A DNA stretch of 64,000 nt from a virus. The position numbers and the translations under genes are program-made. Position 1 is the first letter of the stretch. The number at the start of each line of letters is the position of its first letter. The notes beneath the pieces were generated by a model that had not been told where the DNA came from, made no database searches, and was given only the letters and a program-made list of their open reading frames with translations. Shown piece by piece: positions 1 through 20,237 of this stretch. The DNA is taken from the IMG/VR virus record IMGVR_UViG_3300044591_000896, positions 32,001 to 96,000 of that record; one strand, given 5' to 3'.

Positions 1-627
1 TCTTCTTGTTATATAGTTGTCCGTCCATTTTGAGTTAGCCCCATAATGAAGCATTGGTGCTTCTATGTCATTTAGAACATAAAACCATTCTTCATCTACA
101 AATTTATCTATTGCTACGTTCCATACTGGCCATCCTGTTTCTTGGTCAGAGGCTATGCTATATGAATCAAGAGACTTTAATTTAGAAATCATTAATTCTA
201 TAACCTCTTTTAGTATTGGGTTTTCTGGACTGCAACCAAAAAACCACATTGCATATTCTGTTTTTCTATCTGCTATTGGATTTTTGATTGGAATAAAGAA
301 TGCATCTTTATCTTGTGGTAAAAAAGAATCTATATTGCTAAATGATATTACATCTATATCTATGTACACTCCACCAAACTTATATATAGATAAGTATCTC
401 CAAAAATCTGCTTTAATCTGTGGATGATCTATCTTAAGATATATGTCTGCCATGTCCTGATCATAGTTATCTAGTATCATCTTGTAGCAGTCTTCGTGGG
501 TTAGATACCTATATTCCCAGCCCTCATTATTGTTTTTCCAACTGTCAGAACAAACCTTAACATACTCTGGTAAATCATTATAATCTGATAAGCATGTCTG
601 CCAAATTATCTTTGGGATGTTACTCAT
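1..627 (-). CDS. Glycosyltransferase, DXD sugar-binding (GT32/OCH1-like); 3' end runs off the window
   Basis: Not in the ORF track. Manual translation MSNIPKIIWQT...KADFWRYLSIYKFGGVYIDID has the IPKIIWQT start and GGVYxDxD motif of this family. Confidence 0.85.
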   Translation of the reverse strand, partial: MSNIPKIIWQTCLSDYNDLPEYVKVCSDSWKNNNEGWEYRYLTHEDCYKMILDNYDQDMADIYLKIDHPQIKADFWRYLSIYKFGGVYIDIDVISFSNIDSFLPQDKDAFFIPIKNPIADRKTEYAMWFFGCSPENPILKEVIELMISKLKSLDSYSIASDQETGWPVWNVAIDKFVDEEWFYVLNDIEAPMLHYGANSKWTDNYITRR

Positions 628-1198
628 TAACAGCGTCTCTTGGCATTATGTCTATGATTAAGTGTATTCTTTCCCCGCCCCTATTTTCTACAGAGTGCAC
701 TCTATTGTTATTAATCTCCCAGCACTCACCAGATCTTAGATGCTTTCTCTCTCCACCTACACTAAAATAGACTCTATCGTTTGTTACAATAGGAATGTGA
801 TGTCTTCTAACTAAGCCAAGGTAGTCTCCGCTGTCTGAGTGTGGGTCTATGTCGCTTTCTTCTGAAAGCTTTACTAGCAAAGCCCTGGCCAGCACTCCGT
901 CACAAGAATACTCTAGCCCCTTAATTATTGGGTCAATCTCTTTCCATAAATCTTCATTGGAACTTGATCTATATGTAGTGAAAGGCTCTCCATAATTCCA
1001 TTCAATTGAGCAGGAATTAATTAAATATGAATGAGTAAAAGAATGTGGGTTCTTTCTATCTGGGTATTTATTATTCTGTCTGGTGGTGTCTATCAGCCAC
1101 TCAGACTCAAATTTAGAAACTATATCAATTATAGAATCAATATTAAATTTTCCTTTAAACTTAAAATTAAAGTTTTCTTCTGCTTTATTTAATATCAT
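620..1198 (-). CDS. Aspartyl/asparaginyl beta-hydroxylase family 2OG-Fe(II) oxygenase
   Basis: IDPHSD...RHHIPIVTN...GECWEINNNRVHSVENRGGERIHLIIDI: HxD...H facial triad and RxHLIxD motif. Confidence 0.85.
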   Translation of the reverse strand: MILNKAEENFNFKFKGKFNIDSIIDIVSKFESEWLIDTTRQNNKYPDRKNPHSFTHSYLINSCSIEWNYGEPFTTYRSSSNEDLWKEIDPIIKGLEYSCDGVLARALLVKLSEESDIDPHSDSGDYLGLVRRHHIPIVTNDRVYFSVGGERKHLRSGECWEINNNRVHSVENRGGERIHLIIDIMPRDAVNE

Positions 1199-1994
1199 TT
1201 TCTATACTCCTTACATAGTTATATATTGCATAATCAATATCATTTTGATCTAGTATCATCTGCTTCTCTTCTTCCGTCAACATTTCTTTTAGCTTTGATG
1301 TAGTATATTCTACACCATTATATGTAACTTCAGAAGGATTAACTCTTTTTTCTTTATTCCAGTTTATTGTAACCCCATAGTTATCTTTAAACCATTTTTG
1401 TTTCTTTGACATAAATTCATCAATGTTGTCTACTGTACCAACAATACTAAAAGAATCTATTTGCTTCTTAGCAAATTCAAGAGATGTTTTATCGTTATTT
1501 ACAAACCAAGTAAAAACTTTTCCATCATTAAATTTTCCTTCTTGCTCTAGTATAGCCTCGTCTTCTCTTATAAATTTAGATGCATTAAACAATCTTGAGT
1601 CTGTTGGATTACATATAAATCTTGCCTGATAGTTCTTGTGAGAGGCAGCATTTGGATCAGTAAACAAATAATATCTTAGTTTATCTACATATGAATCAAT
1701 ACTGTCGTACTCTTTTTGTCCTGCAAACTGTGGTTCATATATAAAATTAAAATAGCTAATTCTTGCATCTACTGGATGTCTAACAATGCAGGCAACCTCT
1801 ATGTCCTTCACAACATCAATTGGGTATGTACCAAAATGACCAGCAATATATGCCTGGTCATTTAGGTTTACATTGTGTGGGTAGTGCGTGTTGGTGTAAC
1901 TATTTATATCATTAGCATACAATGTAGTTCTAATATTTTCTTTTACAAACCTGCCAGCAGTTTTAGGTATATGCAAAAAGTATAACTGTTTCAT
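1185..1994 (-). CDS. Sulfotransferase family protein
   Basis: N-terminal FLHIPKTAG (5'-PSB loop) and VRHPVDARISYFNF (3'-PB motif). Confidence 0.85.
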   Translation of the reverse strand: MKQLYFLHIPKTAGRFVKENIRTTLYANDINSYTNTHYPHNVNLNDQAYIAGHFGTYPIDVVKDIEVACIVRHPVDARISYFNFIYEPQFAGQKEYDSIDSYVDKLRYYLFTDPNAASHKNYQARFICNPTDSRLFNASKFIREDEAILEQEGKFNDGKVFTWFVNNDKTSLEFAKKQIDSFSIVGTVDNIDEFMSKKQKWFKDNYGVTINWNKEKRVNPSEVTYNGVEYTTSKLKEMLTEEEKQMILDQNDIDYAIYNYVRSIENDIK

Positions 1995-2113
1995 TATACT
2001 TCTCTCATTTTACCGCATCTAGCACAAGCTTCATATGTCTTGCCAGTAAATGGGCAAGAACCAGCTGCAACAATATCGTGCCCAAGGATTGAGCATTTGA
2101 TTTTGCTAAACAT
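1994..2113 (-). CDS. 39-aa Cys/His micropeptide (DUF1660-like)
   Basis: Manual translation MFSKIKCSILGHDIVAAGSCPFTGKTYEACARCGKMREV (CxxxGH...CxRCG). It fills the gap and its stop overlaps the next start. Confidence 0.65.
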   Translation of the reverse strand: MFSKIKCSILGHDIVAAGSCPFTGKTYEACARCGKMREV

Positions 2114-2118
2114 AAAAA

Positions 2119-2376
2119 CTACTTAGTTGGTAGATGTTTAATTGTTGACTCGTAGTAGTCTGGTGTTGGGTTGTCGAACCAATTCTGTAGGTCCTCAAGA
2201 GACATGTCTCTTTTTTCTGATACAGGCTCCTGACCTTCTTGTGCGAAGGTAGCAACTGTTTCAAATGTTCCATCAGAATTTGGAGAGTATTCTACTCTAC
2301 CTATTTCAATTGTGAATCCGTGGTCGTAAGCTTCTCCAGATTCATCTACACCTTTTGATCCCGCTTTTGTAATCAT
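2119..2376 (-). CDS. Hypothetical protein
   Basis: ORF coupled (ATGA overlap) to the upstream oxygenase gene. Confidence 0.7.
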   Translation of the reverse strand: MITKAGSKGVDESGEAYDHGFTIEIGRVEYSPNSDGTFETVATFAQEGQEPVSEKRDMSLEDLQNWFDNPTPDYYESTIKHLPTK

Positions 2377-3263
2377 TTTTCTTCCTCTTCCTTAATGATC
2401 ATGTCGTTAATTACGCCCTCTGGCACACGACCTTCTTTTACTGCATTTTCTTGGTTTCTACGTGCATTAGACTTAATGTCTGCTGTAGTCAAGCTCTCTT
2501 TAAATCCAGGTGGTAGCTTAGACTCATCGTCAACTCCAGCGTATGGATCTTCTAGTAAAGGGTGGGCAACGCCATCCTTCCATTGTGTTTTTAATTGATA
2601 TTGATGAATTCTTTCTTTTAGAATCATCCTTTCCATTTCTTGCAATTCTGCTTCTGAGTACCATGCATCTGCGTAATCCCAAAAAATAACAATAGTGTAT
2701 CTAGTACCACTTGTTATTTCTGTAACGCTATGAATGTTTTCTACTCCTCCTGGGAAGGATACAAATGAGCCAGCTTCTGGGACTACTTCTAATCCATGAT
2801 CTCTAAACTTTAAAACACCACCAGTGTAATCTGGTTGTGAGTTTAGATAAATGCCAGCGTATTGCTTATTGTCGCTCCAGCCCATGTCATTACCTTCTAG
2901 ATCTGAGCTGTCTGAGTGATCATTTGCGTATGCACCTAGCTCCCATTTCTGGGCATGCATACTGTTAATTTTCATTGGTCTTCCAGCAGCATCTGAAACA
3001 TACTGAATCATTCTTTCACGAAGATTAGCCATGTACTCTTCAGTTATTGTTGTTCCATGCTCCTTAGTAAATGGAGAAACAACATGCATTCCATATGATC
3101 CATAAAAGCAGATAAATCTCCACTCTTCTTCGTTAGCATTGAAGAATTTAATTAGCTCATCGCACTCTTCCTTAGAAAGAAAGTTTTCGTATGACCAAAT
3201 TCCTGTTCCTCCGCCACCTAAAAGCTTACCGCCTAGTTGACTAACTACCTTTGTATCTGACAT
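2373..3263 (-). CDS. 2OG-Fe(II) oxygenase, prolyl-4-hydroxylase-like
   Basis: ENFLSKEEC, HSD, IYLN...YTGGVLKF, HSVTEITSGTRYT motifs; AAGGAG RBS. Confidence 0.88.
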   Translation of the reverse strand: MSDTKVVSQLGGKLLGGGGTGIWSYENFLSKEECDELIKFFNANEEEWRFICFYGSYGMHVVSPFTKEHGTTITEEYMANLRERMIQYVSDAAGRPMKINSMHAQKWELGAYANDHSDSSDLEGNDMGWSDNKQYAGIYLNSQPDYTGGVLKFRDHGLEVVPEAGSFVSFPGGVENIHSVTEITSGTRYTIVIFWDYADAWYSEAELQEMERMILKERIHQYQLKTQWKDGVAHPLLEDPYAGVDDESKLPPGFKESLTTADIKSNARRNQENAVKEGRVPEGVINDMIIKEEEEK

Positions 3264-3281
3264 GTTGTTCTCCTTTTAATG

Positions 3282-3371
3282 TTATGCAATAGATGAATCT
3301 ATTATTAAATCTACGGCATCGTCTAAAGAATTTGAGTGTTCTTTAGAGCAATTACCACATTCTTTACACAT
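3282..3371 (-). CDS. 29-aa Cys-rich micropeptide
   Basis: Manual translation MCKECGNCSKEHSNSLDDAVDLIIDSSIA; fills an intergenic gap. Confidence 0.55.
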   Translation of the reverse strand: MCKECGNCSKEHSNSLDDAVDLIIDSSIA

Positions 3372-3373
3372 TG

Positions 3374-3577
3374 TTAAACTTTTTTACGTCCTGTTTTCTT
3401 TGGTGGCTTTGGAACATTGCTGGTTTCTCTACGAATACCATGTCTGTTTACATCCACTTTCATTCCCTGTCTAGGGTGTTTTTTTGTAGCTTCTCTACTT
3501 GTAACAGCACCAGAAGCCCCAGTGTTTGGTGGTGGGGTATTTCCAGTACCATCATTTTTTTTAAAACTATCAGACAT
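3374..3577 (-). CDS. Hypothetical small basic protein
   Basis: ORF track; GGAGAGG upstream; stop/start coupling. Confidence 0.65.
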   Translation of the reverse strand: MSDSFKKNDGTGNTPPPNTGASGAVTSREATKKHPRQGMKVDVNRHGIRRETSNVPKPPKKTGRKKV

Positions 3578-3762
3578 TAATCAATGTCCTCTCCGTTTGA
3601 TCCTTTTGACTCAGAATTTTCATGAGCCAAGCTTTCTTCTGATTCTGATCCAAACATTGATGGTACAGAAACTAATCCAGTAGCTCCCACATCATATACA
3701 TTTTGGTTTGGCATTGCTACGCCCATAAAATCTTGGCTACTGCATCCACATAAAGCGCACAT
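3577..3762 (-). CDS. Hypothetical peptide with N-terminal CxxCGC motif
   Basis: MCALCGC start and acidic tail; tightly packed with neighbours. Confidence 0.65.
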   Translation of the reverse strand: MCALCGCSSQDFMGVAMPNQNVYDVGATGLVSVPSMFGSESEESLAHENSESKGSNGEDID

Positions 3763-3764
3763 TA

Positions 3765-3923
3765 TTACTTACCGTTTGCGCCTAATCCTGCTCCATCTTG
3801 TGAAGACTTATCTGTTGATGCAAATGCTCCTGCTGGTGCTTCTGTGTAGTTCTCTGTTGGCCATGGTGATGCACCTGCTGGCTTTACTTCGTTGAATCCT
3901 GTTAAATTTAATCCGTCTGACAT
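3765..3923 (-). CDS. 52-aa Gly/Ala/Pro-rich peptide
   Basis: Manual translation MSDGLNLTGFNEVKPAGASPWPTENYTEAPAGAFASTDKSSQDGAGLGANGK. Strong AGGAG RBS and an upstream TGcTATAAT promoter. Confidence 0.75.
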   Translation of the reverse strand: MSDGLNLTGFNEVKPAGASPWPTENYTEAPAGAFASTDKSSQDGAGLGANGK

Positions 3924-3998
3924 TTTATTTCTCCTATAGGTTATTTATTTAAGCGGGACTAGTATTCCGCTTATAAGACTATTATAGCATTTAGTTGA

Positions 3999-4121
3999 TT
4001 AGGATCTGTAATACTCGTGCCAGCAGTCATCACAGATATCTATGATTCCGCCTTCTGGTTTAGCGGCTATTTTTTTTGCCTTTTTGCCACAGCCGTTCCA
4101 TTCACACAAATCACCAAGCAT
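3999..4121 (-). CDS. 40-aa putative zinc-binding micropeptide
   Basis: Manual translation MLGDLCEWNGCGKKAKKIAAKPEGGIIDICDDCWHEYYRS. Confidence 0.6.
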   Translation of the reverse strand: MLGDLCEWNGCGKKAKKIAAKPEGGIIDICDDCWHEYYRS

Positions 4122-4264
4122 TATTTAGATCCTTTGGCCGTCTGGCCACGGTATCCCGTCTTCTTTTTATTCATAGACCCTGGCTTTTTATACCCAGCCC
4201 CATTAGGCGTAGCCGCAATTCTTTGCTCTAAAGCCTTTTTAATTTTATCGTGATGCTTTCCCAT
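4121..4264 (-). CDS. 47-aa basic micropeptide
   Basis: Manual translation MGKHHDKIKKALEQRIAATPNGAGYKKPGSMNKKKTGYRGQTAKGSK; TAATG coupling at both ends. Confidence 0.65.
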   Translation of the reverse strand: MGKHHDKIKKALEQRIAATPNGAGYKKPGSMNKKKTGYRGQTAKGSK

Positions 4265-4482
4265 TATTTAACCTTACTTCCAAACTTGTTCCATGCTCTT
4301 TCATGTAAGAAAAAGCCAACTATCTCGCAACCAGTGTATACGAGTGCAAATGCACCAGCATATTCCCAGTGAGCTTCCCCAGTAATAGCCTTTTCAAAAA
4401 AATAAACTAATGTTCCAACGAATCCAATATGAACTATTGGCCATGTGATTGATTTATATAAACTTCTTTTGTTTGATTCCAT
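4264..4482 (-). CDS. DUF2061-family small membrane protein
   Basis: KRSLYKSITW...FFLHERAW signature with two hydrophobic segments. Confidence 0.8.
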   Translation of the reverse strand: MESNKRSLYKSITWPIVHIGFVGTLVYFFEKAITGEAHWEYAGAFALVYTGCEIVGFFLHERAWNKFGSKVK

Positions 4483-4488
4483 TGTTTT

Positions 4489-4517
4489 ATTATACTCTCT
4501 ATTGTATAAAAGTTCAA
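4489..4517 (-). promoter_or_regulatory. Sigma-70/SigA-type promoter, leaderless
   Basis: TTGAAC-N17-TATAAT, then 6 nt to the ATG at 4482; no SD. Confidence 0.75.
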
Positions 4518-4536
4518 TAGGTAGAACTTTTATTTA

Positions 4537-5148
4537 TTAAAGCCAACTTCTAAATTGCAAAGATGCTCTTGGTGCTGAAACTTCTATTTGATGATATATA
4601 CCTTCTGGGAAAAATAAAAAGTCCCCTGGATTCATCTCAAATGTTTTTTGATATTTAATTGGATCTTCCCCCATGAGACTTTTGTCTGAAATTGTCCAGT
4701 AAGTTTGCCCCTGACACTGTAAAGAAAATGCTGACCAATTATCTTTATGACTTAAGTTTTGATAAGGGCCTACACATACTTTTGGCCCAGCTAAGTTTAT
4801 TGATATTCCACATTCTTGTTCTAATGTTTCTGTCATTTTAAAAATTTCTGGGAAATATTTTTTAAATCTTTCTTTTACATATGCCCCATTATCAATTCCA
4901 TTGAGCGCATTAATATATAAATTTTTACCAACAATAACCGTTCCATTCAACTTTTCATTATTACCAGCGACTATAGTAGCAAGATCATTGTCTGTTGGTT
5001 CCTGCCATTCCTCATAAATGCAATTTAAAAAATCTTGCCATGAAGGAATGTGATCTTCGCCTATAAAATTCTTAAAATATGCTGGCTCAAATTTATCGGC
5101 TGCATCTTTAATTGTTTTTTTAAATTCTTCTAAGTTATAGTTGATCAT
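4537..5148 (-). CDS. JmjC/cupin-type 2OG-Fe(II) oxygenase
   Basis: HKD...LQCQGQTYWTI...MNPGDFLFFPEGIYHQI is a JmjC pattern. Confidence 0.8.
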   Translation of the reverse strand: MINYNLEEFKKTIKDAADKFEPAYFKNFIGEDHIPSWQDFLNCIYEEWQEPTDNDLATIVAGNNEKLNGTVIVGKNLYINALNGIDNGAYVKERFKKYFPEIFKMTETLEQECGISINLAGPKVCVGPYQNLSHKDNWSAFSLQCQGQTYWTISDKSLMGEDPIKYQKTFEMNPGDFLFFPEGIYHQIEVSAPRASLQFRSWL

Positions 5149-6352: not shown

Positions 6353-6544
6353 TTAGTTTAAGTTGTTTATTCTTACTTGGAATGAGCACGGATCTCCGCC
6401 TTCATCCCATTCTTGCATTTCTTCTTCTGTCATAGGCGAACCATCATGAGTATTGCAAAATACATCAGAAATCCATCCACGATCAAAACCATTCTTTAAC
6501 CAAATTTCAAACTCCATGAAGTCATTGTCTGAGTTTATATCCAT
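6353..6544 (-). CDS. Hypothetical acidic protein
   Basis: ORF track; overlaps the thioredoxin stop. Confidence 0.7.
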   Translation of the reverse strand: MDINSDNDFMEFEIWLKNGFDRGWISDVFCNTHDGSPMTEEEMQEWDEGGDPCSFQVRINNLN

Positions 6545-6837
6545 TCAGACAACTCCTTTATTAGAATATGCTTTGGCTTGGCACCAGTAATAGTCTTGAC
6601 TGGCTTGCCATCTACAAATAGTACCATAGTTGGAATTGAATGTACAGCAAATTCTGCTGATTTGGTAGGATTCTCATCAACATTTAACTTTCCAACCCAT
6701 AATCCAGCCTCATTAGATATCTCATCTAATATTGGCGAGAGCATTTTGCATGGGCCACACCAAGGTGCCCAAAAATCAATAAGCACAACTTTATGGGATT
6801 GAATGACAGAGTCAAATGTATTATCTGTTACTATCAT
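6535..6837 (-). CDS. trxA: Thioredoxin
   Basis: DFWAPWCGPCK active site and SIPT cis-Pro loop. Start moved to MIVTD (ATGA overlap). Confidence 0.95.
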   Translation of the reverse strand: MIVTDNTFDSVIQSHKVVLIDFWAPWCGPCKMLSPILDEISNEAGLWVGKLNVDENPTKSAEFAVHSIPTMVLFVDGKPVKTITGAKPKHILIKELSEWI

Positions 6838-7304
6838 AGCGAGTCCACGTGTGTAGGCCAATAGTAATTGCAATTTTCACAACAGGTATAACCAATCTCT
6901 TTATAATCTGCATACTCACTATAGAAGTAGTAGTGAATAGGATCCTTTTCAAACAATCTTCCCTTATGAGTATAATGAACCTGGTCTTCTCCTAGCCACC
7001 AAGGTCTATCTGACTCTAATCCCAGAAAGTTTTCTTTATATATCTCATCGAACAAGGCGTGAGTTGTATTCTTATACCCACGTAGGATTATATCTCGAAC
7101 AATGGCTTCATTGTAAAGGAACAACCAATCTTCATGTCCCCTCCACATTTTGACTGCTGGGTGGTTAGACCAAGCTCCAGTTTCATATAGTCCAGCAAGT
7201 GACTTTAGAATCTGTAAATTTTCAACGCTTTGTTTAATTAATCGCTTTCTATCAAGATGCTTTGCAGTTTCTTGAAAGTCCGCCTCTGGTAGAAATGTTT
7301 GCAT
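6834..7304 (-). CDS. MSMEG_6728-family / pyrimidine-dimer DNA glycosylase-like protein
   Basis: MQTFLP...LDRKRLIKQ...WSNHPAVKMWRG...PWWLG...H...L.EKDP.HY...YYWP. Confidence 0.85.
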   Translation of the reverse strand: MQTFLPEADFQETAKHLDRKRLIKQSVENLQILKSLAGLYETGAWSNHPAVKMWRGHEDWLFLYNEAIVRDIILRGYKNTTHALFDEIYKENFLGLESDRPWWLGEDQVHYTHKGRLFEKDPIHYYFYSEYADYKEIGYTCCENCNYYWPTHVDSL

Positions 7305-12508: not shown

Positions 12509-12691
12509 TTAGTCCCCCTCTCTATTTCTTATTGGGCTGGTTAATATCCACAGTGCAGTTGTGGCAATAATTCCATAGCCAACAATTGTTTTTGCGCTAC
12601 CATCCAAAACAACCCAAGCAATAAACATACCAAGAAGGGTCCATGCTTGGTCAACCATATCCTTTAGGATATTCTTTATTATTCTTACCAT
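12509..12691 (-). CDS. Small two-TM membrane protein
   Basis: WTLLGMFIAWVVL and IVGYGIIATTALWIL helices. Confidence 0.75.
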   Translation of the reverse strand: MVRIIKNILKDMVDQAWTLLGMFIAWVVLDGSAKTIVGYGIIATTALWILTSPIRNREGD

Positions 12692-15105
12692 CTTCGTCCT
12701 CCTCGTGAACCTGGTGAATTTGCTCCTGAGCCTCCACCAGAACTTCCTCCGCCTCCTGTGCCACCCCCTGTGGCTCCTCCTGTAGCAACTGCTGCTGCAT
12801 TAATTGCTGCACCTGCTGCAACTACTGTGGCAACAACCATGTCTGTTGCCTCTTCTCTTTCTTCATCAGTCATATCTGCGCCTATGCTGCCAAGAGCAGC
12901 TATTGCTGCTGCTGGGTTGGTCAGCGCTGCCTCTAGCAATGCTCCTGGATCTTGAACTAATTCTATATTTGCAGCAACTGCTGCAGTAATTACAAGCGCA
13001 TTACCATTTTCATCTGTTCTGACTTCAACAGGTGTGGATGCTGGTAGGTCAGAATATGAAACACCAGCAGCTTTAATATCTGCTGCTGAAACTGATTGAC
13101 CTGGTGCAAGATTTTCTATTAATTTTTCTACAACAATTTCTTTTTGTGCTTCAGTTAGTTTGCCTTCTTCTGCTGCTTTTTTTAATTCCTCCGCCTCTGC
13201 TTTTGCTGCTTCTGCAGCTTTTGCTTCAGCTTCCGCTTTTGCATCTGCCTCTTCTTGTGCTTTAGCTTCCGCCTCTGCTTTAGCGTCTGCTTCTTCTTGA
13301 GCCTTTGCTTCTGCTTCAGCCTTTGCATCCGCTTCTGCCTGCGCTGCAGCTAATGCCTCTGCTTCTAATCTATCTGCTTCTGCCTTTGCATCTGCTTCAG
13401 CTTGTTCTTTAGCTTCTTGCTCTGCTTTAGCAGCGGCTTCTTCTGCGGCTATACGGTCAGCCTCTGCTTTAGCAGCGGCTTCTTCTGCGGCTATACGGTC
13501 AGCCTCTGCTTTAGCAGCGGCTTCTTCTGCGGCTTTAGCTTCTGCTTCTGCCTTTGCTGCAGCTTCCGCTGCTGCTTTAGCTTCTGCTTCTGCAGCTTCC
13601 GCTGCTGCTTTAGCGGCTGCTTGGGCGGCTGCTTGGGCTGCTGCGGCTTGGGCTGCTGCGGCTTCTGCTGCTGCTGCTTGGGCTGCTGCTTGGGCAGCTG
13701 CGGCTTCTGCTGCTGCTTGGGCTGCTGCTTGGGCTGCTGCTTGCTGCTCTGCATAATAATTAACTGTAACCTGTGCTGCATTTGTCATTGCAGTTACTGC
13801 TTCATTTACTTTTGTTGTTGCTGTATTAGCAAGAGTATCTGCTGCTTGAACTGTTACTGTAGCAGTTTCTGTAAGCTGAGTAAGTGTAGCAACTTCTACT
13901 GCTTTTACCTCTGTTTTATCTACAACTACTGCTTCTGCAGCAGTCTTTTGTGCAGTAAGAGTATTAAGTACTGCGGTATCAGCGTTAAGAGTTGTTTGTG
14001 CAGTAGAAACTGCGGCAACTAACACAGGATCTTTTGTAACTACTGTGGTCGCAAATGCTGTTTGATTTGGAGTAGTAAAATATCCACTTCCATCCTGCCT
14101 CATTATTAACCAGCCAAGTATAACTTGTGAACCTCCACCATTTTCATAGTACCAAATAGTAAAGTCCTGTTGCTTATCTGTAGTGGTGTTATAGGTTGGA
14201 GAGTATTGGCTCCACCCTCCGCCCTTATCAATCCATTCATTAATTGCAAGCTGTCCATCAACATACATCTTTGCTCCATCGTCTGAATGTATTGCATATT
14301 TTACCGTTACTGCTTCTTCTGGAACGGTAATAGTTCCTTCAAATTTTACAATTACATTGTCCACTCTGCCAGAATTAAATACCTCACCGCTTCCAAATTG
14401 GTGAGCTATATAAGGAACTGTTGTGGTTGAAAGTGGTGTTGCATTTTCTGCTGGAAGTGGTGGCTGCTGTCCCCCAGGTGATGCGTATGTTGTTACCTCA
14501 ATCCCATTGGTTGTTGTTTCTACAGCTGAGGCATCTGCTGCTGCCTGTGCTGTAGCAAGATTTGTGGTGTCTGTAGCAACTACAGCAGTCTGAGATTCAA
14601 CCTGTTGAGTTACTGTATTTAAATTTGTTTGAGCATTATTTAGATTTGTTGTTGCTGTGGCAACTACTGCAGTTTGTGATTCAACTGCTGCTTGGGCGGT
14701 TGCTGCAACTGTGACTGCTGTTTCAGCAGACTGTATTGCATTATTGGCTTCTTGCACCTTGACAGTAGCTTCAGCAACAGCTGTGGCTATGGGCTCTTGT
14801 GTTGTAGCAATTGTTGTAGCAGATTGAGTATCTGTGTTTGGTACATTAGCCTGTATTGTTGCCACTATTGTTGATGCTTGAGTTTCTGCTGCTTGTGATA
14901 AAGTTGTTTGTGCCGCCTCTACTTTATCTGCGACTATCTCAACTGTAATAGGAGTGGTTGCTGTGGCGGTATCTGAAACTGAACTTGGATCTGCAGGCGT
15001 TACTTGAACTGTAACTTCCTCTGCATTTGCAATGCTTGGTCCAAAAAGGAAAAGCCAGCCCATTATAAAAAGGCTGGTTAAAGAATACTGTAACTTTCTA
15101 GTCAA
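12685..15105 (-). CDS. Large secreted/membrane-anchored protein with PA14 carbohydrate-binding domain and Ala/Glu helical stalk
   Basis: Signal peptide ending ANA; PA14 motifs (VKFEGTI, SDDGAKMYVDGQLAINEW, WYYENGGG); (A/E/K) repeats; C-terminal hydrophobic segment and basic end. TTG start with AGGAG. Confidence 0.85.
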   Translation of the reverse strand: MTRKLQYSLTSLFIMGWLFLFGPSIANAEEVTVQVTPADPSSVSDTATATTPITVEIVADKVEAAQTTLSQAAETQASTIVATIQANVPNTDTQSATTIATTQEPIATAVAEATVKVQEANNAIQSAETAVTVAATAQAAVESQTAVVATATTNLNNAQTNLNTVTQQVESQTAVVATDTTNLATAQAAADASAVETTTNGIEVTTYASPGGQQPPLPAENATPLSTTTVPYIAHQFGSGEVFNSGRVDNVIVKFEGTITVPEEAVTVKYAIHSDDGAKMYVDGQLAINEWIDKGGGWSQYSPTYNTTTDKQQDFTIWYYENGGGSQVILGWLIMRQDGSGYFTTPNQTAFATTVVTKDPVLVAAVSTAQTTLNADTAVLNTLTAQKTAAEAVVVDKTEVKAVEVATLTQLTETATVTVQAADTLANTATTKVNEAVTAMTNAAQVTVNYYAEQQAAAQAAAQAAAEAAAAQAAAQAAAAEAAAAQAAAAQAAAQAAAKAAAEAAEAEAKAAAEAAAKAEAEAKAAEEAAAKAEADRIAAEEAAAKAEADRIAAEEAAAKAEQEAKEQAEADAKAEADRLEAEALAAAQAEADAKAEAEAKAQEEADAKAEAEAKAQEEADAKAEAEAKAAEAAKAEAEELKKAAEEGKLTEAQKEIVVEKLIENLAPGQSVSAADIKAAGVSYSDLPASTPVEVRTDENGNALVITAAVAANIELVQDPGALLEAALTNPAAAIAALGSIGADMTDEEREEATDMVVATVVAAGAAINAAAVATGGATGGGTGGGGSSGGGSGANSPGSRGGRRW
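13421..13534. repeat. Exact 42-bp tandem repeat (about 2.7 copies) in the stalk region
   Basis: tctgctttagcagcggcttcttctgcggctatacggtcagcc at 13421 and 13463, partial at 13505; encodes AEADRIAAEEAAAK. Confidence 0.9.
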
Positions 15106-15172: not shown

Positions 15173-15361
15173 CTACTTAGGATTGTCTGTCTTATAAAAG
15201 CCATTACCTTTAAACTGTATCCCAAATGGAGTAAAGTGTCTTATCATTGGTGACTCACATTCTACACATTCGTAGCCTGGGTCATCTTCCACAATTGATC
15301 TATGTACTGACATGGTTGCATGTGCATCATCTTCGCTGCACTTATACTCATAAACTGGCAT
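15173..15361 (-). CDS. FmdB-family zinc-ribbon protein
   Basis: MPVYEYKC...CVEC...IQFKGNGFYKTD. Confidence 0.9.
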   Translation of the reverse strand: MPVYEYKCSEDDAHATMSVHRSIVEDDPGYECVECESPMIRHFTPFGIQFKGNGFYKTDNPK

Positions 15362-16100
15362 TATCTTCTCCTAAAATCTCTAGCACAACTTGGTGTATAT
15401 CTGAATCATTCTTACCGAAAGATGTATTAGATATAAGTATATCAGTTACACCCTGATTTTCCAACTGTTTAATTTGATTCTTTATCTCTTCTTTATTACC
15501 AAATATAGTATTATTCTTTTCCTTGCCATTTGGCATGCCGTCATAAATAAACTTAGCGTGGTCATCTATAATAGCTGATAGTCTTACTATCGTTCTTCCG
15601 CCCTGTGATCCAAGCTCATCAAATTTTGATAGGGTGACTATCTGTCCATCTCCAAACTTGGCTACGCTTTCAGCAGTTTCCTTAGATGAACCGCTAAAGA
15701 ATATCTCTGGGCAATTTTTATTTACAGATCTAAGTCTTTCAACAAACAAAGCGCTTTGCTTCTTCCTGTCTTCTATTGAAGTGGGGATACAAAACAATGC
15801 TTGATCATCGTCATATGTGCCAGCTATTATATTCAAAGATATTCTGCCTGGCTCAATCTCATTAAATGCGTCTATCATCATAGAGCAATAGGCTGCTGTT
15901 ATAGCATATGGCCTAATAGCAATCATATACTTAACCTTGTCCTCAGTATTAATTGCATGGGCAGCCTTAATCCAATAGTCTGATTCGTCTGAGTGGAATG
16001 TCAGTAGCATAGAATCATACTTATAAAAGTCTATGACCTTAGATAAAGTTTTTAAATCTTTGGGATTAAGATTGTTCTTGACCATCCAATGAAATTTCAT
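15348..16100 (-). CDS. Luciferase-like (LLM) flavin-dependent monooxygenase, SsuD-like, compact
   Basis: YMIAIRPYAI...AFNEIEPGRISLNIIAG, IFFSGSS, IFGNKEEIKNQIKQLENQGVTDILI match LLM TIM-barrel motifs. Confidence 0.8.
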   Translation of the reverse strand: MKFHWMVKNNLNPKDLKTLSKVIDFYKYDSMLLTFHSDESDYWIKAAHAINTEDKVKYMIAIRPYAITAAYCSMMIDAFNEIEPGRISLNIIAGTYDDDQALFCIPTSIEDRKKQSALFVERLRSVNKNCPEIFFSGSSKETAESVAKFGDGQIVTLSKFDELGSQGGRTIVRLSAIIDDHAKFIYDGMPNGKEKNNTIFGNKEEIKNQIKQLENQGVTDILISNTSFGKNDSDIHQVVLEILGEDNASL

Positions 16101-16300
16101 TTTCTACCCCACTGAATGTGGTTCCACCCACGCTCATGTGCGTAGTAAATAAAGACTTTAACTACTGTCTCCCAAAAAGCAATAGCACCTGATAGAGTTG
16201 CGTCTCCAGTAATCACATAAGCAACAACAAATGATGATAGTGTTCCCCATATGCGATAACTAAGTGCTTTAGTAAATGATCTCGCTCTAGTTACTGTCAT
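16097..16300 (-). CDS. DUF2061-family membrane protein
   Basis: RSFTKALSYRI...YYAHERGW. Confidence 0.9.
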   Translation of the reverse strand: MTVTRARSFTKALSYRIWGTLSSFVVAYVITGDATLSGAIAFWETVVKVFIYYAHERGWNHIQWGRK

Positions 16301-16500
16301 TCTTTACCCCAATTAAATGAGTTCCATACTCTTTCATGGTAGTAATAACAAATAAAATTAACAGCATTTGTTATAATAGTTGCCATTGTAGCCATGTTTA
16401 TGTCCTTGCTTAAAGCATAAAGAGTAATAAAGGTTGTCAGTAAAGCAATGGCTCTCCATGTCAAAGACTTGACAAATGATCTTTTTTTAGAGACGTTCAT
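16297..16500 (-). CDS. DUF2061-family membrane protein
   Basis: RSFVKSLTWRAI...YYYHERVW. Confidence 0.9.
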   Translation of the reverse strand: MNVSKKRSFVKSLTWRAIALLTTFITLYALSKDINMATMATIITNAVNFICYYYHERVWNSFNWGKE

Positions 16501-16618
16501 CGTCTACCTCTTCTTTAAACCAATTAGAATACAGTCTTGCCTCTGCATCCGCAATCTTGTTGTCAAAGAAAATGTTATAGACCCATTTCAATCCGCTTTT
16601 GAGTAGCTGAAATAGCAT
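16487..16618 (-). CDS. Possible 43-aa overlapping micro-ORF
   Basis: MLFQLLKSGLKWVYNIFFDNKIADAEARLYSNWFKEEVDDERL spans the cysC-DUF2061 gap; no clear RBS. Confidence 0.35.
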   Translation of the reverse strand: MLFQLLKSGLKWVYNIFFDNKIADAEARLYSNWFKEEVDDERL

Positions 16619-17336
16619 GAATTGTTGCCCCCAAATCTACTTGCTCAATCTTATATCCTACATCACGACCATATACAATATTAGTAATGTTAGGTAATCT
16701 TAATACTAATGCACCATCCATAAATTCATCTTTGGCAATATATTCTTTTACCTGATCAAACTTAAGTGGATCCTTCTCGCTTGTTTTATATGTGTTACGC
16801 ACACCAAGCAGCACCTGCTTTGTTCTCTTTCCCGCCTCTTCATATAATGCGTGATGTCCTTCATGCCATGGCTGATACCTACCAAGCATTAATGTAGTTG
16901 GTGCTGACCAATCGTGAAGATTAAAATAACTAATAATTACTGAGGCTTTTTGCTCAGCATCTAGTTTGTGACTATCAAATTTTGCATCAGGATCTTCTGG
17001 CTTTTCAAACATCTTGTTTGTATCTTCAAATCTTCCCTCTTCTATTGTATCCATGAAGATAAGAATGTCTGGCTTACCGAATGCTGCACGAGTTAATTCT
17101 GTAGGACAAACAAAGTCAACTACTACTGGTGCTACTCCTTGCTTGGCAATTAATCTTGCCATCTCTCCCATGCGTCTTGCTTGCTCTATTCTATCTTCAG
17201 CACTAAATCCTAGGTCAGAATTTACTGTTGCACGGACTTCATCTGCATTAAGATGTATTGCGTTAATTCTTTCTTTTAAAGCTTTTGCAAGCTCTGTCTT
17301 TCCAGAACCTGGGAGACCAATTATTTGAATAATCAT
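16575..17336 (-). CDS. cysC: Adenylylsulfate (APS) kinase fused to an HxGH nucleotidyltransferase domain
   Basis: GLPGSGKT P-loop, LNADEVR, DLGFSAEDRIEQARRMGE; C-terminal LGRYQPWHEGH...ISATQKR. Confidence 0.88.
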   Translation of the reverse strand: MIIQIIGLPGSGKTELAKALKERINAIHLNADEVRATVNSDLGFSAEDRIEQARRMGEMARLIAKQGVAPVVVDFVCPTELTRAAFGKPDILIFMDTIEEGRFEDTNKMFEKPEDPDAKFDSHKLDAEQKASVIISYFNLHDWSAPTTLMLGRYQPWHEGHHALYEEAGKRTKQVLLGVRNTYKTSEKDPLKFDQVKEYIAKDEFMDGALVLRLPNITNIVYGRDVGYKIEQVDLGATIHAISATQKRIEMGL

Positions 17337-17387: not shown

Positions 17388-17804
17388 TTATTTAATTTTT
17401 AGAATTTTTGGTTGTTTTTCTTTTGGTAGATTTCTAACTACACGGATATGCAACATGCCATCCTTTAGCTCTACACTAGAAACTTCCATGTATTCACTTA
17501 GTTCAAAGATTCTTGTGAACTTACGTGCAGCGATTCCCTTGTGGACAACTTCTGCATCTGTTACTTCTGTAATTTCACCTGTGATCCAAAGACTTCCGTC
17601 TTCAATTGACACAGTCAGATCTTCTCTTGTGAATCCAGCAACTGCCAGCGTTAACTGATAGTTATCTTCGTCTAGCTTTAGCAAATCATATGGCGGGAAT
17701 GCCGTATTGTTTACCTTACTAAGACTATTGAAGCGCTCCAACTCTCTGTTGAAGCCAATAAAAAATGGATCCTTAAATAGATCCATAGCAAATTGTGTTA
17801 CCAT
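17388..17804 (-). CDS. Small heat-shock protein Hsp20 (IbpA-like)
   Basis: FPPYDLLK...LAVAGF...HKGIAARKFTRIFEL...LKDGMLHI...PKILKIK. Confidence 0.95.
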   Translation of the reverse strand: MVTQFAMDLFKDPFFIGFNRELERFNSLSKVNNTAFPPYDLLKLDEDNYQLTLAVAGFTREDLTVSIEDGSLWITGEITEVTDAEVVHKGIAARKFTRIFELSEYMEVSSVELKDGMLHIRVVRNLPKEKQPKILKIK

Positions 17805-17861: not shown

Positions 17862-17891
17862 ATTATACCATTTAGGTGACTAGGATTGCAA
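17862..17891 (-). promoter_or_regulatory. hsp20 promoter
   Basis: TTGCAA-N18-TATAAT with extended TG. Confidence 0.75.
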
Positions 17892-19081: not shown

Positions 19082-19594
19082 TTAAGCTGAGAGTATCTTT
19101 GCTAATGCGTTTACTGTTGCTGCAATTCTTCCGATATCACGCAACTGCTCGACTGAGTAGCCTTCCTCTTTCAATGTTTCATAGTGTGCTTTAACACAGA
19201 AATGGCATTTCCCTACAATAGATGAAGCTAACGAGTAAGCCTCAAATCTTGCTTTTGTAGTGCCTCCATGAGATGCTATTGCATTCATTCTAAGCTGCGC
19301 TGGTAACCCCTTTAAGTTAGGATCATCTGCCATCTCAATGTATGGATACCAAACATTATTTTGTGCCATGATAGCACCAGCTGTAAGTGCCGCATTTCTT
19401 TCTACTTCGTCTGTTGCACTTGCTGTAATAAAAGCAACAAGCTTTCCGTTTCCAGTAGCAAAGGCTGCAGCTAATGCGAGATAGGTTGCCTGTTCTGAAT
19501 CAATAGTTGATCTATTAATTACTGAATCTAGATTTAACCTAATGTCCTTAGCGTACTCTGGAAGATTTTCATTAATCTGGCCAACCCAAGACAT
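19082..19594 (-). CDS. ahpD: Alkyl hydroperoxide reductase AhpD
   Basis: LPEYAKDIRLNL...AIMAQNNVWY...LRMNAI...GKCHFCVKAH; directly downstream of ahpC. Confidence 0.95.
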   Translation of the reverse strand: MSWVGQINENLPEYAKDIRLNLDSVINRSTIDSEQATYLALAAAFATGNGKLVAFITASATDEVERNAALTAGAIMAQNNVWYPYIEMADDPNLKGLPAQLRMNAIASHGGTTKARFEAYSLASSIVGKCHFCVKAHYETLKEEGYSVEQLRDIGRIAATVNALAKILSA

Positions 19595-20130
19595 TACAGC
19601 GTCTCCCCGCCAAGTGATCTATTGCATGCACATAGCTCACCAGTTTGAAGAGCATCTAGAACACGAAGAGTTTCATCTGGATTTCTTCCTACATCTAAAT
19701 TGTTTACTGTTACATGCTGGATAATATTATCTGGGTCTACAATAAATGTTGCACGATATGCTACTCCAGAAGAGTGTTGAATTCCAAGGTCACCAGATAA
19801 TTGATGTGCTGTATCTGCAAAGGACCAAGAATTAGTTTTCTTTAAATCTTCATGAGCATTGCGCCATGCAATTTTGCAAAACTCGTTATCCACTGATCCA
19901 GTCATAAGGACTGCGTCACGGTCATTAAAATCATTTACAAGAGCATCATATGCAACAATTTCTGTTGGGCATACAAAGGTAAAATCTTTTGGATAGAATG
20001 CAATAATTTTCCATTTGCCTGGAAAAGAATCTTGGTTTATTACTTCAAAAGATGAGTCGTCATAAGATAACGCTCCAGGTTTAACTCCGATAACGGCAAA
20101 GTTACCAAGTTTATCTCCTATTGTTTTCAT
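19594..20130 (-). CDS. ahpC: Peroxiredoxin AhpC
   Basis: FYPKDFTFVCPTEI, GRNPDETLRVLDALQTGELCAC. Start moved to MKTIG after AAGGAG. Confidence 0.96.
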   Translation of the reverse strand: MKTIGDKLGNFAVIGVKPGALSYDDSSFEVINQDSFPGKWKIIAFYPKDFTFVCPTEIVAYDALVNDFNDRDAVLMTGSVDNEFCKIAWRNAHEDLKKTNSWSFADTAHQLSGDLGIQHSSGVAYRATFIVDPDNIIQHVTVNNLDVGRNPDETLRVLDALQTGELCACNRSLGGETL

Positions 20131-20165
20131 GTTTCTCCTTATATATAAGTGATACAAACGTATCG

Positions 20166-20237
20166 CACCCCTGGCTGGAATCGAACCAGCGACCAACAGA
20201 TTAGAAGTCTGTTGCTCTTCCGCTGAGCTACAGAGGT
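20166..20237 (-). tRNA. tRNA-Arg(TCT)
   Basis: ACCTCTG...ACAGA CT TCT AA TCTGT...GCTGG TTCGATT CCAGC CAGGGGT G. Confidence 0.93.

Follow-up and report, generated by a model that had tools for sequence, protein, structure and literature searches.

A kinase-nucleotidyltransferase fusion encoded beside DUF2061 membrane proteins in a low-GC actinophage: a candidate miniature PAPS synthase

We analysed a stretch of 64,000 nucleotides (the window) that covers bases 32001-96000 of the phage genome IMGVR_UViG_3300044591_000896, a complete IMG/VR record of 115,479 bp with direct terminal repeats. Five closely packed genes, all on the minus strand, lie at positions 15173-17336 of the window (Table 1). 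They encode a fusion of an adenosine 5'-phosphosulfate (APS) kinase-like domain to a nucleotidyltransferase (NT) carrying an HxGH motif, two DUF2061 membrane proteins, a luciferase-like monooxygenase (LLM) and an FmdB-like protein. All five are found where an earlier note, made from the sequence alone, had placed them; that note saw in them a sulfur-activation operon with a possible minimal synthase of 3'-phosphoadenosine 5'-phosphosulfate (PAPS). A 74-nt gap follows the fusion gene; the four remaining genes have overlapping start and stop codons. The phage terminase shares 63% identity with the terminases of Streptomyces phages of cluster BE which, together with a phage-encoded WhiB and a GC content of about 38%, points to a low-GC actinophage. 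The region gave no blastn match among cultured phages. Close relatives, whose fusion protein is 85-100% identical, are extremely common in metagenomes, and the RNA libraries that contain fragments of the phage are from freshwater.

The N-terminal half of the fusion is closest to APS kinases by sequence and by predicted fold. The Pfam model APS_kinase (PF01583) matches the fusion with an E-value of 1e-15 and 58.5 bits (gathering cut-off 21.1), over residues 2-85 and profile positions 4-91 of 152 only, while the score against TIGR00455, 65.4 bits, is under the cut-off of 138.7. A phmmer search of the PDB with this domain returned APS kinases only. The domain contains the P-loop GLPGSGKT, and its segment LNADEVR...SDLGFSAEDRIEQARR aligns to the LDGDxxR...GFSxxDRxENxRR signature of canonical CysC (Arabidopsis, human and the homologue P0163 described below), the first Asp of the DGD motif being replaced by Asn. 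Missing is the lid (RDxKGLYKxAxxG), a stretch of about 40 residues that in canonical enzymes follows the FISP motif and precedes FTG: the alignment skips from DFVCP, which resembles FISP, to RFEDTNKMFEKP, in which RFEDT resembles FTG. An AlphaFold2 (AF2) model of the full-length protein built on 53 homologues reached a predicted local distance difference test (pLDDT) score of 96 and a predicted template modelling score (pTM) of 0.87, and both domains are packed in it as one compact body. The top 50 Foldseek matches of this model are all APS kinases, with E-values from 6e-9 to 4e-7.

The C-terminal half has the motifs of an HxxH-type nucleotidyltransferase. Its HEGH motif, at residues 158-161 of the fusion, is nearly invariant among the 53 homologues, and an alignment of 35 NT domains showed three invariant blocks, GR(Y/W)QPWHxGH, PNI..YGRDVGY and ISATxxR. 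The form of the first motif in the family as a whole is GR(Y/W/F)QP(W/F)HxGH. The models CTP_transf_like and NadM/NMNAT, the latter for nicotinamide mononucleotide (NMN) adenylyltransferases (NMNATs), match residues 149-231 weakly.

The partnership of the two halves and their gene neighbours were surveyed in 160 viral loci (80 from close relatives and 80 from divergent phages) and in 80 cellular loci obtained by a scan retaining one genome per species, many of which belong to incomplete single-amplified or metagenome-assembled genomes (SAGs or MAGs). The kinase-NT pair, fused or as neighbouring genes, is almost universal in the viral loci and occurs in nearly all of the 80 cellular loci; in the viral fusions the kinase stands in front of the NT, the reverse order being found once. 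In P0163, an NT 52% identical to that of the present phage shares its chain with an APS kinase of canonical type and full length (PF01583, E 6e-63). The NT is also encoded by cells, including complete chromosomes of Ca. Pelagibacter, SAR86, Puniceispirillaceae and others, usually as a 135-residue short kinase and an NT of 124-135 residues in adjacent genes. In six SAR11 loci (among them L188:7567-8405 and L235:8644-9473), the kinase-NT pair is followed, after about 1.2 kb, by two half-proteins of the YeeE/YedE 'sulphur transport' type (PF04143). The fusion is also present, at about 40% identity and annotated merely as 'kinase', in Sano-like phages that infect Xylella, Xanthomonas and Stenotrophomonas, and in Xylella phage Sano (L001, 2199-2876 and 5989-6726) a gene annotated as cysteine dioxygenase is found 3 kb upstream.

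In the cellular loci, sulfur genes recur around the NT. It stands beside aprM-aprB-aprA in 14 of the 80; in 11 of these 14, aprMBA is directly preceded by a same-strand NT gene without kinase, and TauE is often encoded downstream. In Allochromatium, sat is co-transcribed with these genes as a sat-aprMBA operon (PMC3779200), so that the NT occupies the place of sat. Three complete Pelagibacter chromosomes encode AprB and exactly one copy of the NT, and neither Sat nor CysD was found in them; five more SAR11 genomes in which the NT is linked to apr genes likewise lack Sat. Among 301 sampled alphaproteobacterial genomes, 11 are positive for AprB and 10 of them have Sat, the eleventh being a Pelagibacter with the NT. 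According to published work, Ca. P. ubique has AprBA and lacks cysDNCHIJ and sat; Table 3 of that paper lists 'cysC' and aprA for the same five strains (PMC5069961). Finally, three streamlined genomes (L170, L173, L268) share a tight same-strand operon cobA-cysI-cysH-DUF2061-short kinase-NT, whose cysH is of the Fe-S APS-reductase type.

The membrane proteins are linked to sulfate activation by fusions as well as by position. All three DUF2061 copies of the window exceed the gathering cut-off of PF09834 (23.1 bits), and they are the only three matches in the whole phage. In the close relatives, with a fusion protein about 88% identical, the next gene encodes DUF2061 in 78 of 80 loci, even where the DUF2061 proteins are only 30-50% identical, and 12 of the 80 have a tandem pair as in the present phage. 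The T4-like phage locus L114 encodes a DUF2061-NT fusion, a single protein of 192 residues without kinase. DUF2061 is also fused to the C-terminus of canonical CysN in three alphaproteobacterial loci (L298, L299, L301), and in a fourth (L300:1575-4127) a chain of 850 residues combines CysN, a full CysC and DUF2061. These CysN-DUF2061 fusions are embedded in cysH-cysD-cysN-cysG and sulfite-reductase contexts. DUF2061 is thus joined to two unrelated types of sulfate-activating enzyme, which supports the assignment of the NT and gives this domain a functional anchor. The connection between DUF2061 and sulfur activation made in the earlier note is supported by these fusions, more strongly than that note could show. 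In the divergent phages, DUF2061 is detectable in 11 of 80 loci.

DUF2061 may serve these enzymes as a membrane tether or as a carrier. Six homologues of the short kinase are fused, at either end, to DUF4118, a KdpD-type four-helix membrane domain (P0127, P0226, P0248, P0255, P0198, P0260), and one of the six also has the NT. An alternative, unrelated membrane domain on the short kinase favours a membrane-localising role. A census of the sulfate transport proteins SulP and Sbp, which includes incomplete MAGs, gave a mixed picture as to carrier or tether: both are absent from two small genomes with the cysH-DUF2061-kinase-NT operon and from G076, while of the two genomes with CysN-DUF2061 fusions, G050 has both SulP and Sbp and G263 has SulP alone. 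A search of the Protein Atlas returned DUF2061 clusters only. A membrane tether fits at least as well as the sulfate or sulfonate carrier of the earlier note; we give a tether or adaptor about an even chance and regard a sulfate conduit as a tentative possibility, somewhat short of even.

Candidate consumers of PAPS are encoded in the window and in the related loci. The protein encoded at 1185-1994 resembles PHROG 3347, a Gal-3-O-sulfotransferase, and contains HIPKTAG and VRHPVDARIS, which we take, reading by eye, to be motifs of the PAPS-binding type. It has no match in Pfam, Sulfotransfer_2 (PF03567) giving none at E<=0.1, and none in a sequence search of the PDB. The earlier note had listed this gene as a sulfotransferase, along with the third DUF2061 gene. 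A homologue of the 1185-1994 protein directly follows the fusion and DUF2061 pair in another locus (L057:4942-5586). In 25 of the 160 viral loci, a Sulfotransfer_2 gene above the Pfam cut-off was found near the fusion, and at least seven different arrangements were seen: ten loci have it immediately downstream of the fusion and one immediately upstream, and in others it lies no more than a few kb away. The cellular loci L295 and L296 add two cases, a fusion in a complete alphaproteobacterial genome with a Sulfotransfer_3 gene directly downstream, and a second fusion with a Sulfotransfer_3 gene nearby plus an arylsulfotransferase. The type of sulfotransferase found in L130 is present in 4 of 50,697 phage records, one of which, Stenotrophomonas phage DLP6, carries the fusion and is its best match among cultured phages. 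The recurrence of sulfotransferases points to sulfation of some acceptor. An assimilatory reduction route run by the phage was considered and set aside as unlikely, because CysH was found neither in the present phage nor in any of four further phages with complete genomes and the fusion.

At 1-5148 of the window, around the third DUF2061 gene and the gene for the sulfotransferase-like protein, lies an island encoding a GT32-like glycosyltransferase, an AspH-like hydroxylase, a 2-oxoglutarate/Fe(II)-dependent (2OG-Fe(II)) oxygenase and a JmjC/cupin protein. These enzymes may serve the production or modification of a sulfation acceptor.

We propose, with a probability of about 0.68, that the 253-residue protein is a miniature bifunctional PAPS synthase and that DUF2061 places this machinery at the membrane. 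The C-terminal HxGH domain would adenylylate sulfate (ATP + sulfate -> APS + PPi, pyrophosphate) and would thus represent an undescribed type of ATP sulfurylase derived from NMNATs. The lid-less N-terminal kinase would then phosphorylate the 3'-OH of APS to give PAPS, pulling the unfavourable first step forward. The DUF2061 hairpins would bring both activities to the inner membrane: they might tether the enzyme close to where sulfate enters the cell, or might themselves be the route by which it enters. PAPS would most likely be delivered to phage-encoded sulfotransferases acting on some acceptor; it is probably not intended for cysteine synthesis by the host, since the phage lacks CysH.

Several observations weigh against this proposal. 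The canonical lid is absent from the kinase, so that kinase activity is not to be assumed. The NT matches neither PF01747 nor the NCBIfam Sat model, and a profile search of the PDB with the NT returned no ATP sulfurylase at E<10. Comparison by hhalign with 16 alphaproteobacterial Sat catalytic domains gave a probability of 4%, over the HxxH region only, and the QxRN loop of Sat is unmatched, GRYQP standing in place of QTRNP. The invariant YGRDVGY block, a possible counterpart of the GRD loop of Sat, lies beyond the reach of the Sat alignment. The nearest solved relatives in the profile search are NadM-type NMNATs (2qjt, 1e-8; 1f9a, 2e-6), although the alignments to 2qjt, 1f9a and 1ej2 span profile positions 8-65 of 115, leaving the C-terminal half unaligned, and the NadM models score well below their cut-offs (TIGR01527, 16.4 bits against 181.2; NF002243, 21.8 against 127). 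A model of the NT alone (pLDDT 83) gave nearly tied Z-scores with the Fom1 cytidylyltransferase (8.3), PPAT (8.0), CCT (7.9), NMNAT (7.5) and Thermus ATP sulfurylase 1v47 (7.1, with 109 residues aligned at 20% identity), other Sat structures reaching 5.0-5.6. Comparison of this predicted structure thus does not discriminate between HxGH families. Foldseek returned only weak matches for it, at E-values of about 0.02, and the 50 listed include no ATP sulfurylase. We therefore rejected membership of the NT in the Sat family, on the lack of a PF01747 match and the hhalign probability; the profile and fold comparisons make it a compact NMNAT-like offshoot outside that family, and sequence and structure alone are insufficient to name its substrate.

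Other points on the same side come from gene content. Two genomes, G004 and G202, contain both Sat and the NT, so that the argument from a missing gene is not universal. Sulfotransfer_2 is not detected by Pfam in Sano, G012, G013 or the whole of the present phage. Around 30 randomly chosen alphaproteobacterial DUF2061 genes no neighbour family dominates and most neighbours are unrelated, and DUF2061 has been listed in iron/Fur regulons of Caulobacter, Shewanella and Vibrio. The possible minimal PAPS synthase of the earlier note is well supported by the gene contexts in phages and cells, but the NT is not a Sat-family enzyme by sequence.

Some of these observations would also be expected if the kinase half alone mattered, 'cysC' turning host APS into PAPS while the NT has no sulfurylase activity and plays a structural or regulatory part, perhaps as a nucleotide-binding stand-in for the lost lid. 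Phage cysC is understood as a kinase gene in the passages of the COBRA study that concern it (PMC10914622); the loss of the lid, the compact packing of both domains in the AF2 model (pTM 0.87) and the absence of any Sat-family signal from the NT are all in line with it. We nevertheless consider it unlikely. The NT occurs without kinase, beside aprMBA in 11 loci and joined to DUF2061 in L114; its catalytic-type motifs, HxGH, GRD and ISATxxR, are invariant; and genomes with cysH or aprBA and no Sat or CysD would be left with no other source or sink of APS.

Activation of a sugar, polyol or phosphonate by a kinase and a cytidylyl- or adenylyltransferase (X-OH -> X-P -> NDP-X), for tailoring of the envelope or of glycans, is still less probable. 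Kinase-NT fusions of the HldE type are a known design, the Fom1 cytidylyltransferase (Z 8.3), CCT and TagD are among the top structural matches of the NT, and glycosyltransferases and hydroxylases are encoded nearby in the window. However, these structural matches are tied within 1 Z unit, the kinase retains the APS-kinase signature motif, and the links to aprMBA, cysH-cysI, canonical CysC and CysN-DUF2061 would be left unexplained. Least probable, and in our view very improbable, is a salvage of NAD in which the kinase acts on nicotinamide riboside, the NT is an NMN adenylyltransferase and DUF2061 is a PnuC-like importer, so that NAD is rebuilt during infection: NadR likewise unites a kinase and an adenylyltransferase and cooperates with an importer in the membrane, and the best sequence matches of the NT are of the NadM type (2qjt, 1e-8; 1f9a, 2e-6), but the NT aligns by its N-terminal half only and widely misses all NMNAT cut-offs, the kinase is APS-kinase-like and not like ribosylnicotinamide kinases (RNK), and NAD genes are seen in no context while sulfur genes recur.

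Table 1. Features of the proposed sulfur-activation locus and related genes, in window coordinates
Feature	Position	Strand	Basis or remark
Fusion gene, kinase + NT	16575-17336	(-)	253 aa; motifs GRYQPWHEGH, ISAT
Fusion N-terminal domain, residues 1-135, short APS-kinase-like P-loop kinase without lid	16932..17336	(-)	PF01583, PDB phmmer, Foldseek
Fusion C-terminal domain, residues 141-253 + stop, HxGH NT of ~113 aa, candidate miniature ATP sulfurylase	16575..16916	(-)	Motifs, sulfur gene contexts
DUF2061 two-helix membrane protein, copy a	16297..16500	(-)	PF09834, 54.8 bits
DUF2061 two-helix membrane protein, copy b (33% identity to copy a)	16097..16300	(-)	PF09834, 64.4 bits
Luciferase-like monooxygenase (LLM), 250 aa, variable accessory gene	15348..16100	(-)	Bac_luciferase, 37.1 bits
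FmdB-like zinc ribbon, 62 aa, degenerate first Cys pair; probably outside the module	15173..15361	(-)	TIGR02605, 30.6 bits
Third, divergent DUF2061 gene	4264..4482	(-)	PF09834, 33.9 bits
Sulfotransferase-like protein, 269 aa, candidate PAPS consumer	1185..1994	(-)	PHROG 3347, E 5.7e-6

The two remaining genes of the block are more loosely attached to the fusion. The LLM belongs to the Bac_luciferase superfamily (cut-off 27.9 bits), the match covering its N-terminal half only. Its best solved relatives are SsuD/MsuD (E 2.7e-5, residues 14-144 alone being aligned), but with 250 residues it is about 130 shorter than SsuD (about 380), and its score against the SsuD model TIGR03565, 42.1 bits, is below the cut-off of 518.2. 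The release of sulfite from sulfonates by an SsuD-like enzyme, as envisaged in the earlier note, was not adopted: the similarity is weak and far under the family threshold, and the product would be sulfite, which is unusable here without an oxidising step, the pathway needing sulfate. An LLM gene is present in 13 of the 80 related loci, directly after DUF2061 in 3, directly before the fusion in 5 and elsewhere in 5. The FmdB-like protein scores just below the TIGR02605 cut-off of 31.3 bits; its first CxxC pair has lost the second Cys (C-S-E-D), and its second pair is CVEC. Its homologues are scattered across the 80 related loci and, where the LLM is absent, FmdB directly follows DUF2061 (e.g. 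L058, L075).

An RNA-library contig of a related phage bears on the extent of the module. In this contig, position 15361 is joined to 17353 with 17 other letters between, so that hsp20 and FmdB are present but the genes for the fusion, the DUF2061 pair and the LLM are not; the joint is weak, with 90% likeness and one side of 32 letters. The contig suggests an insertion/deletion cassette made up of these four genes. From the variable positions of the LLM, the adjacency of FmdB to DUF2061 and this contig, we conclude that the LLM is a recurrent but optional accessory and that FmdB is probably merely the next gene and not part of the module. Of the operon proposed initially, the pair of fusion and DUF2061 is thus what is conserved, while the LLM comes and goes and FmdB follows whatever precedes it. 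Other RNA-library contigs span only parts of the five-gene block. Near-identical fragments of the fusion and of the LLM were found in one freshwater RNA library, a weak sign of expression for which DNA carry-over is possible.

Further genes were noted outside the block. An Hsp20 gene (17388-17804) lies directly upstream of the fusion, and four RNA libraries from freshwater or rivers cover it more heavily than any other part of the stretch. With it goes the region's best promoter-like site (17862-17891), which has 10 of 12 matches and a TG; promoter-like sites in the region are not more frequent than in shuffled sequence. A peroxiredoxin (AhpC/TSA) and an AhpD-like CMD protein are encoded by neighbouring genes, and a thioredoxin gene lies further off (19082-20196 and 6535-6873), a notable set of redox and peroxide-defence genes. 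Directly downstream of the module, a secreted protein of 806 residues with long Ala/Glu/Lys repeats is encoded (12685-15105), for which PHROG, the sole family search made with it, gave no match.

To our knowledge, ATP sulfurylases as presented in textbooks are of two kinds only, Sat and CysDN. If the miniature PAPS synthase proposed here is correct, a third kind, of about 115 residues, would fill the acknowledged gap in SAR11, which has aprBA and 'cysC' without sat or cysDN (PMC5069961), and the annotation of sulfate activation would change in streamlined plankton and in phages. Phage 'cysC' would be re-read, from an aid to sulfate assimilation by the host to a self-contained supply of PAPS for phage sulfotransferases. 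DUF2061, a small membrane family without an assigned role, gains a first functional anchor by its fusion to two unrelated types of sulfate-activating enzyme. No paper in the literature we searched calls the NT a sulfurylase or ties DUF2061 to sulfate activation. A bolder version, which we regard as speculative and rather unlikely as a whole, is that ATP sulfurylases evolved independently a third time, as this HxGH domain, which would be the missing enzyme of SAR11, that DUF2061 is a two-helix, sulfate-conducting membrane module passing imported sulfate straight to the sulfurylase to which it is bound or fused (the NT or CysN), and that phages whose hosts cannot take up or activate sulfate carry a kit for sulfation that imports, activates and transfers it.

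Phage 'cysC' has been published as an auxiliary gene of large, whiB-encoding freshwater actinophages, with transcripts reported from a lake, and the passages of the COBRA study devoted to it read it as a plain APS kinase of assimilatory sulfate reduction (PMC10914622); the fusion described here adds to this the NT, DUF2061 and the link to sulfotransferases, of which those passages make no mention. Among characterized enzymes, human PAPSS1 (1x6v) and the Sat/APS kinase of Aquifex (2gks), both present among the Foldseek matches of the fusion model, likewise combine an HxxH-superfamily adenylyltransferase and an APS-kinase fold in one chain; in them, as proposed for the phage protein, the kinase reaction is coupled to the unfavourable sulfurylase reaction. 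The phage protein is far smaller, 253 residues against 520-630 in known PAPS synthases and Sat-CysC proteins. Its NT has about 113 residues, compared with a Sat catalytic core of about 210 plus a PUA-like domain, and its kinase lacks the lid. With Sat itself (PF01747; Thermus 1v47, Allochromatium 4dnx) the NT has in common the HxxH motif and, at the level of the whole HxGH superfamily, the fold. The tripeptide GRD and the motif IS(A/G)TxxR are present in both, GRD and GRD being possible equivalents, and the two differ in the QxRN loop, absent from the NT, and in a profile-profile probability of only 4%. NadM (1f9a, 2qjt) shares the GRFQPxHxGH-type motif, but the phage NT is about 50 residues shorter, its C-terminal half is unaligned and it has no NAD gene context. 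A parallel in gene organization is NodPQ-NodH, where a dedicated source of PAPS is encoded beside a sulfotransferase. Such a dedicated supply is what the phage locus would have in common with NodPQ-NodH and with CysN-CysC proteins of the NodQ type, which also exist as CysN-CysC-DUF2061 fusions. In the phage, however, a single small HxGH domain would replace the GTPase-driven CysDN chemistry of these systems.

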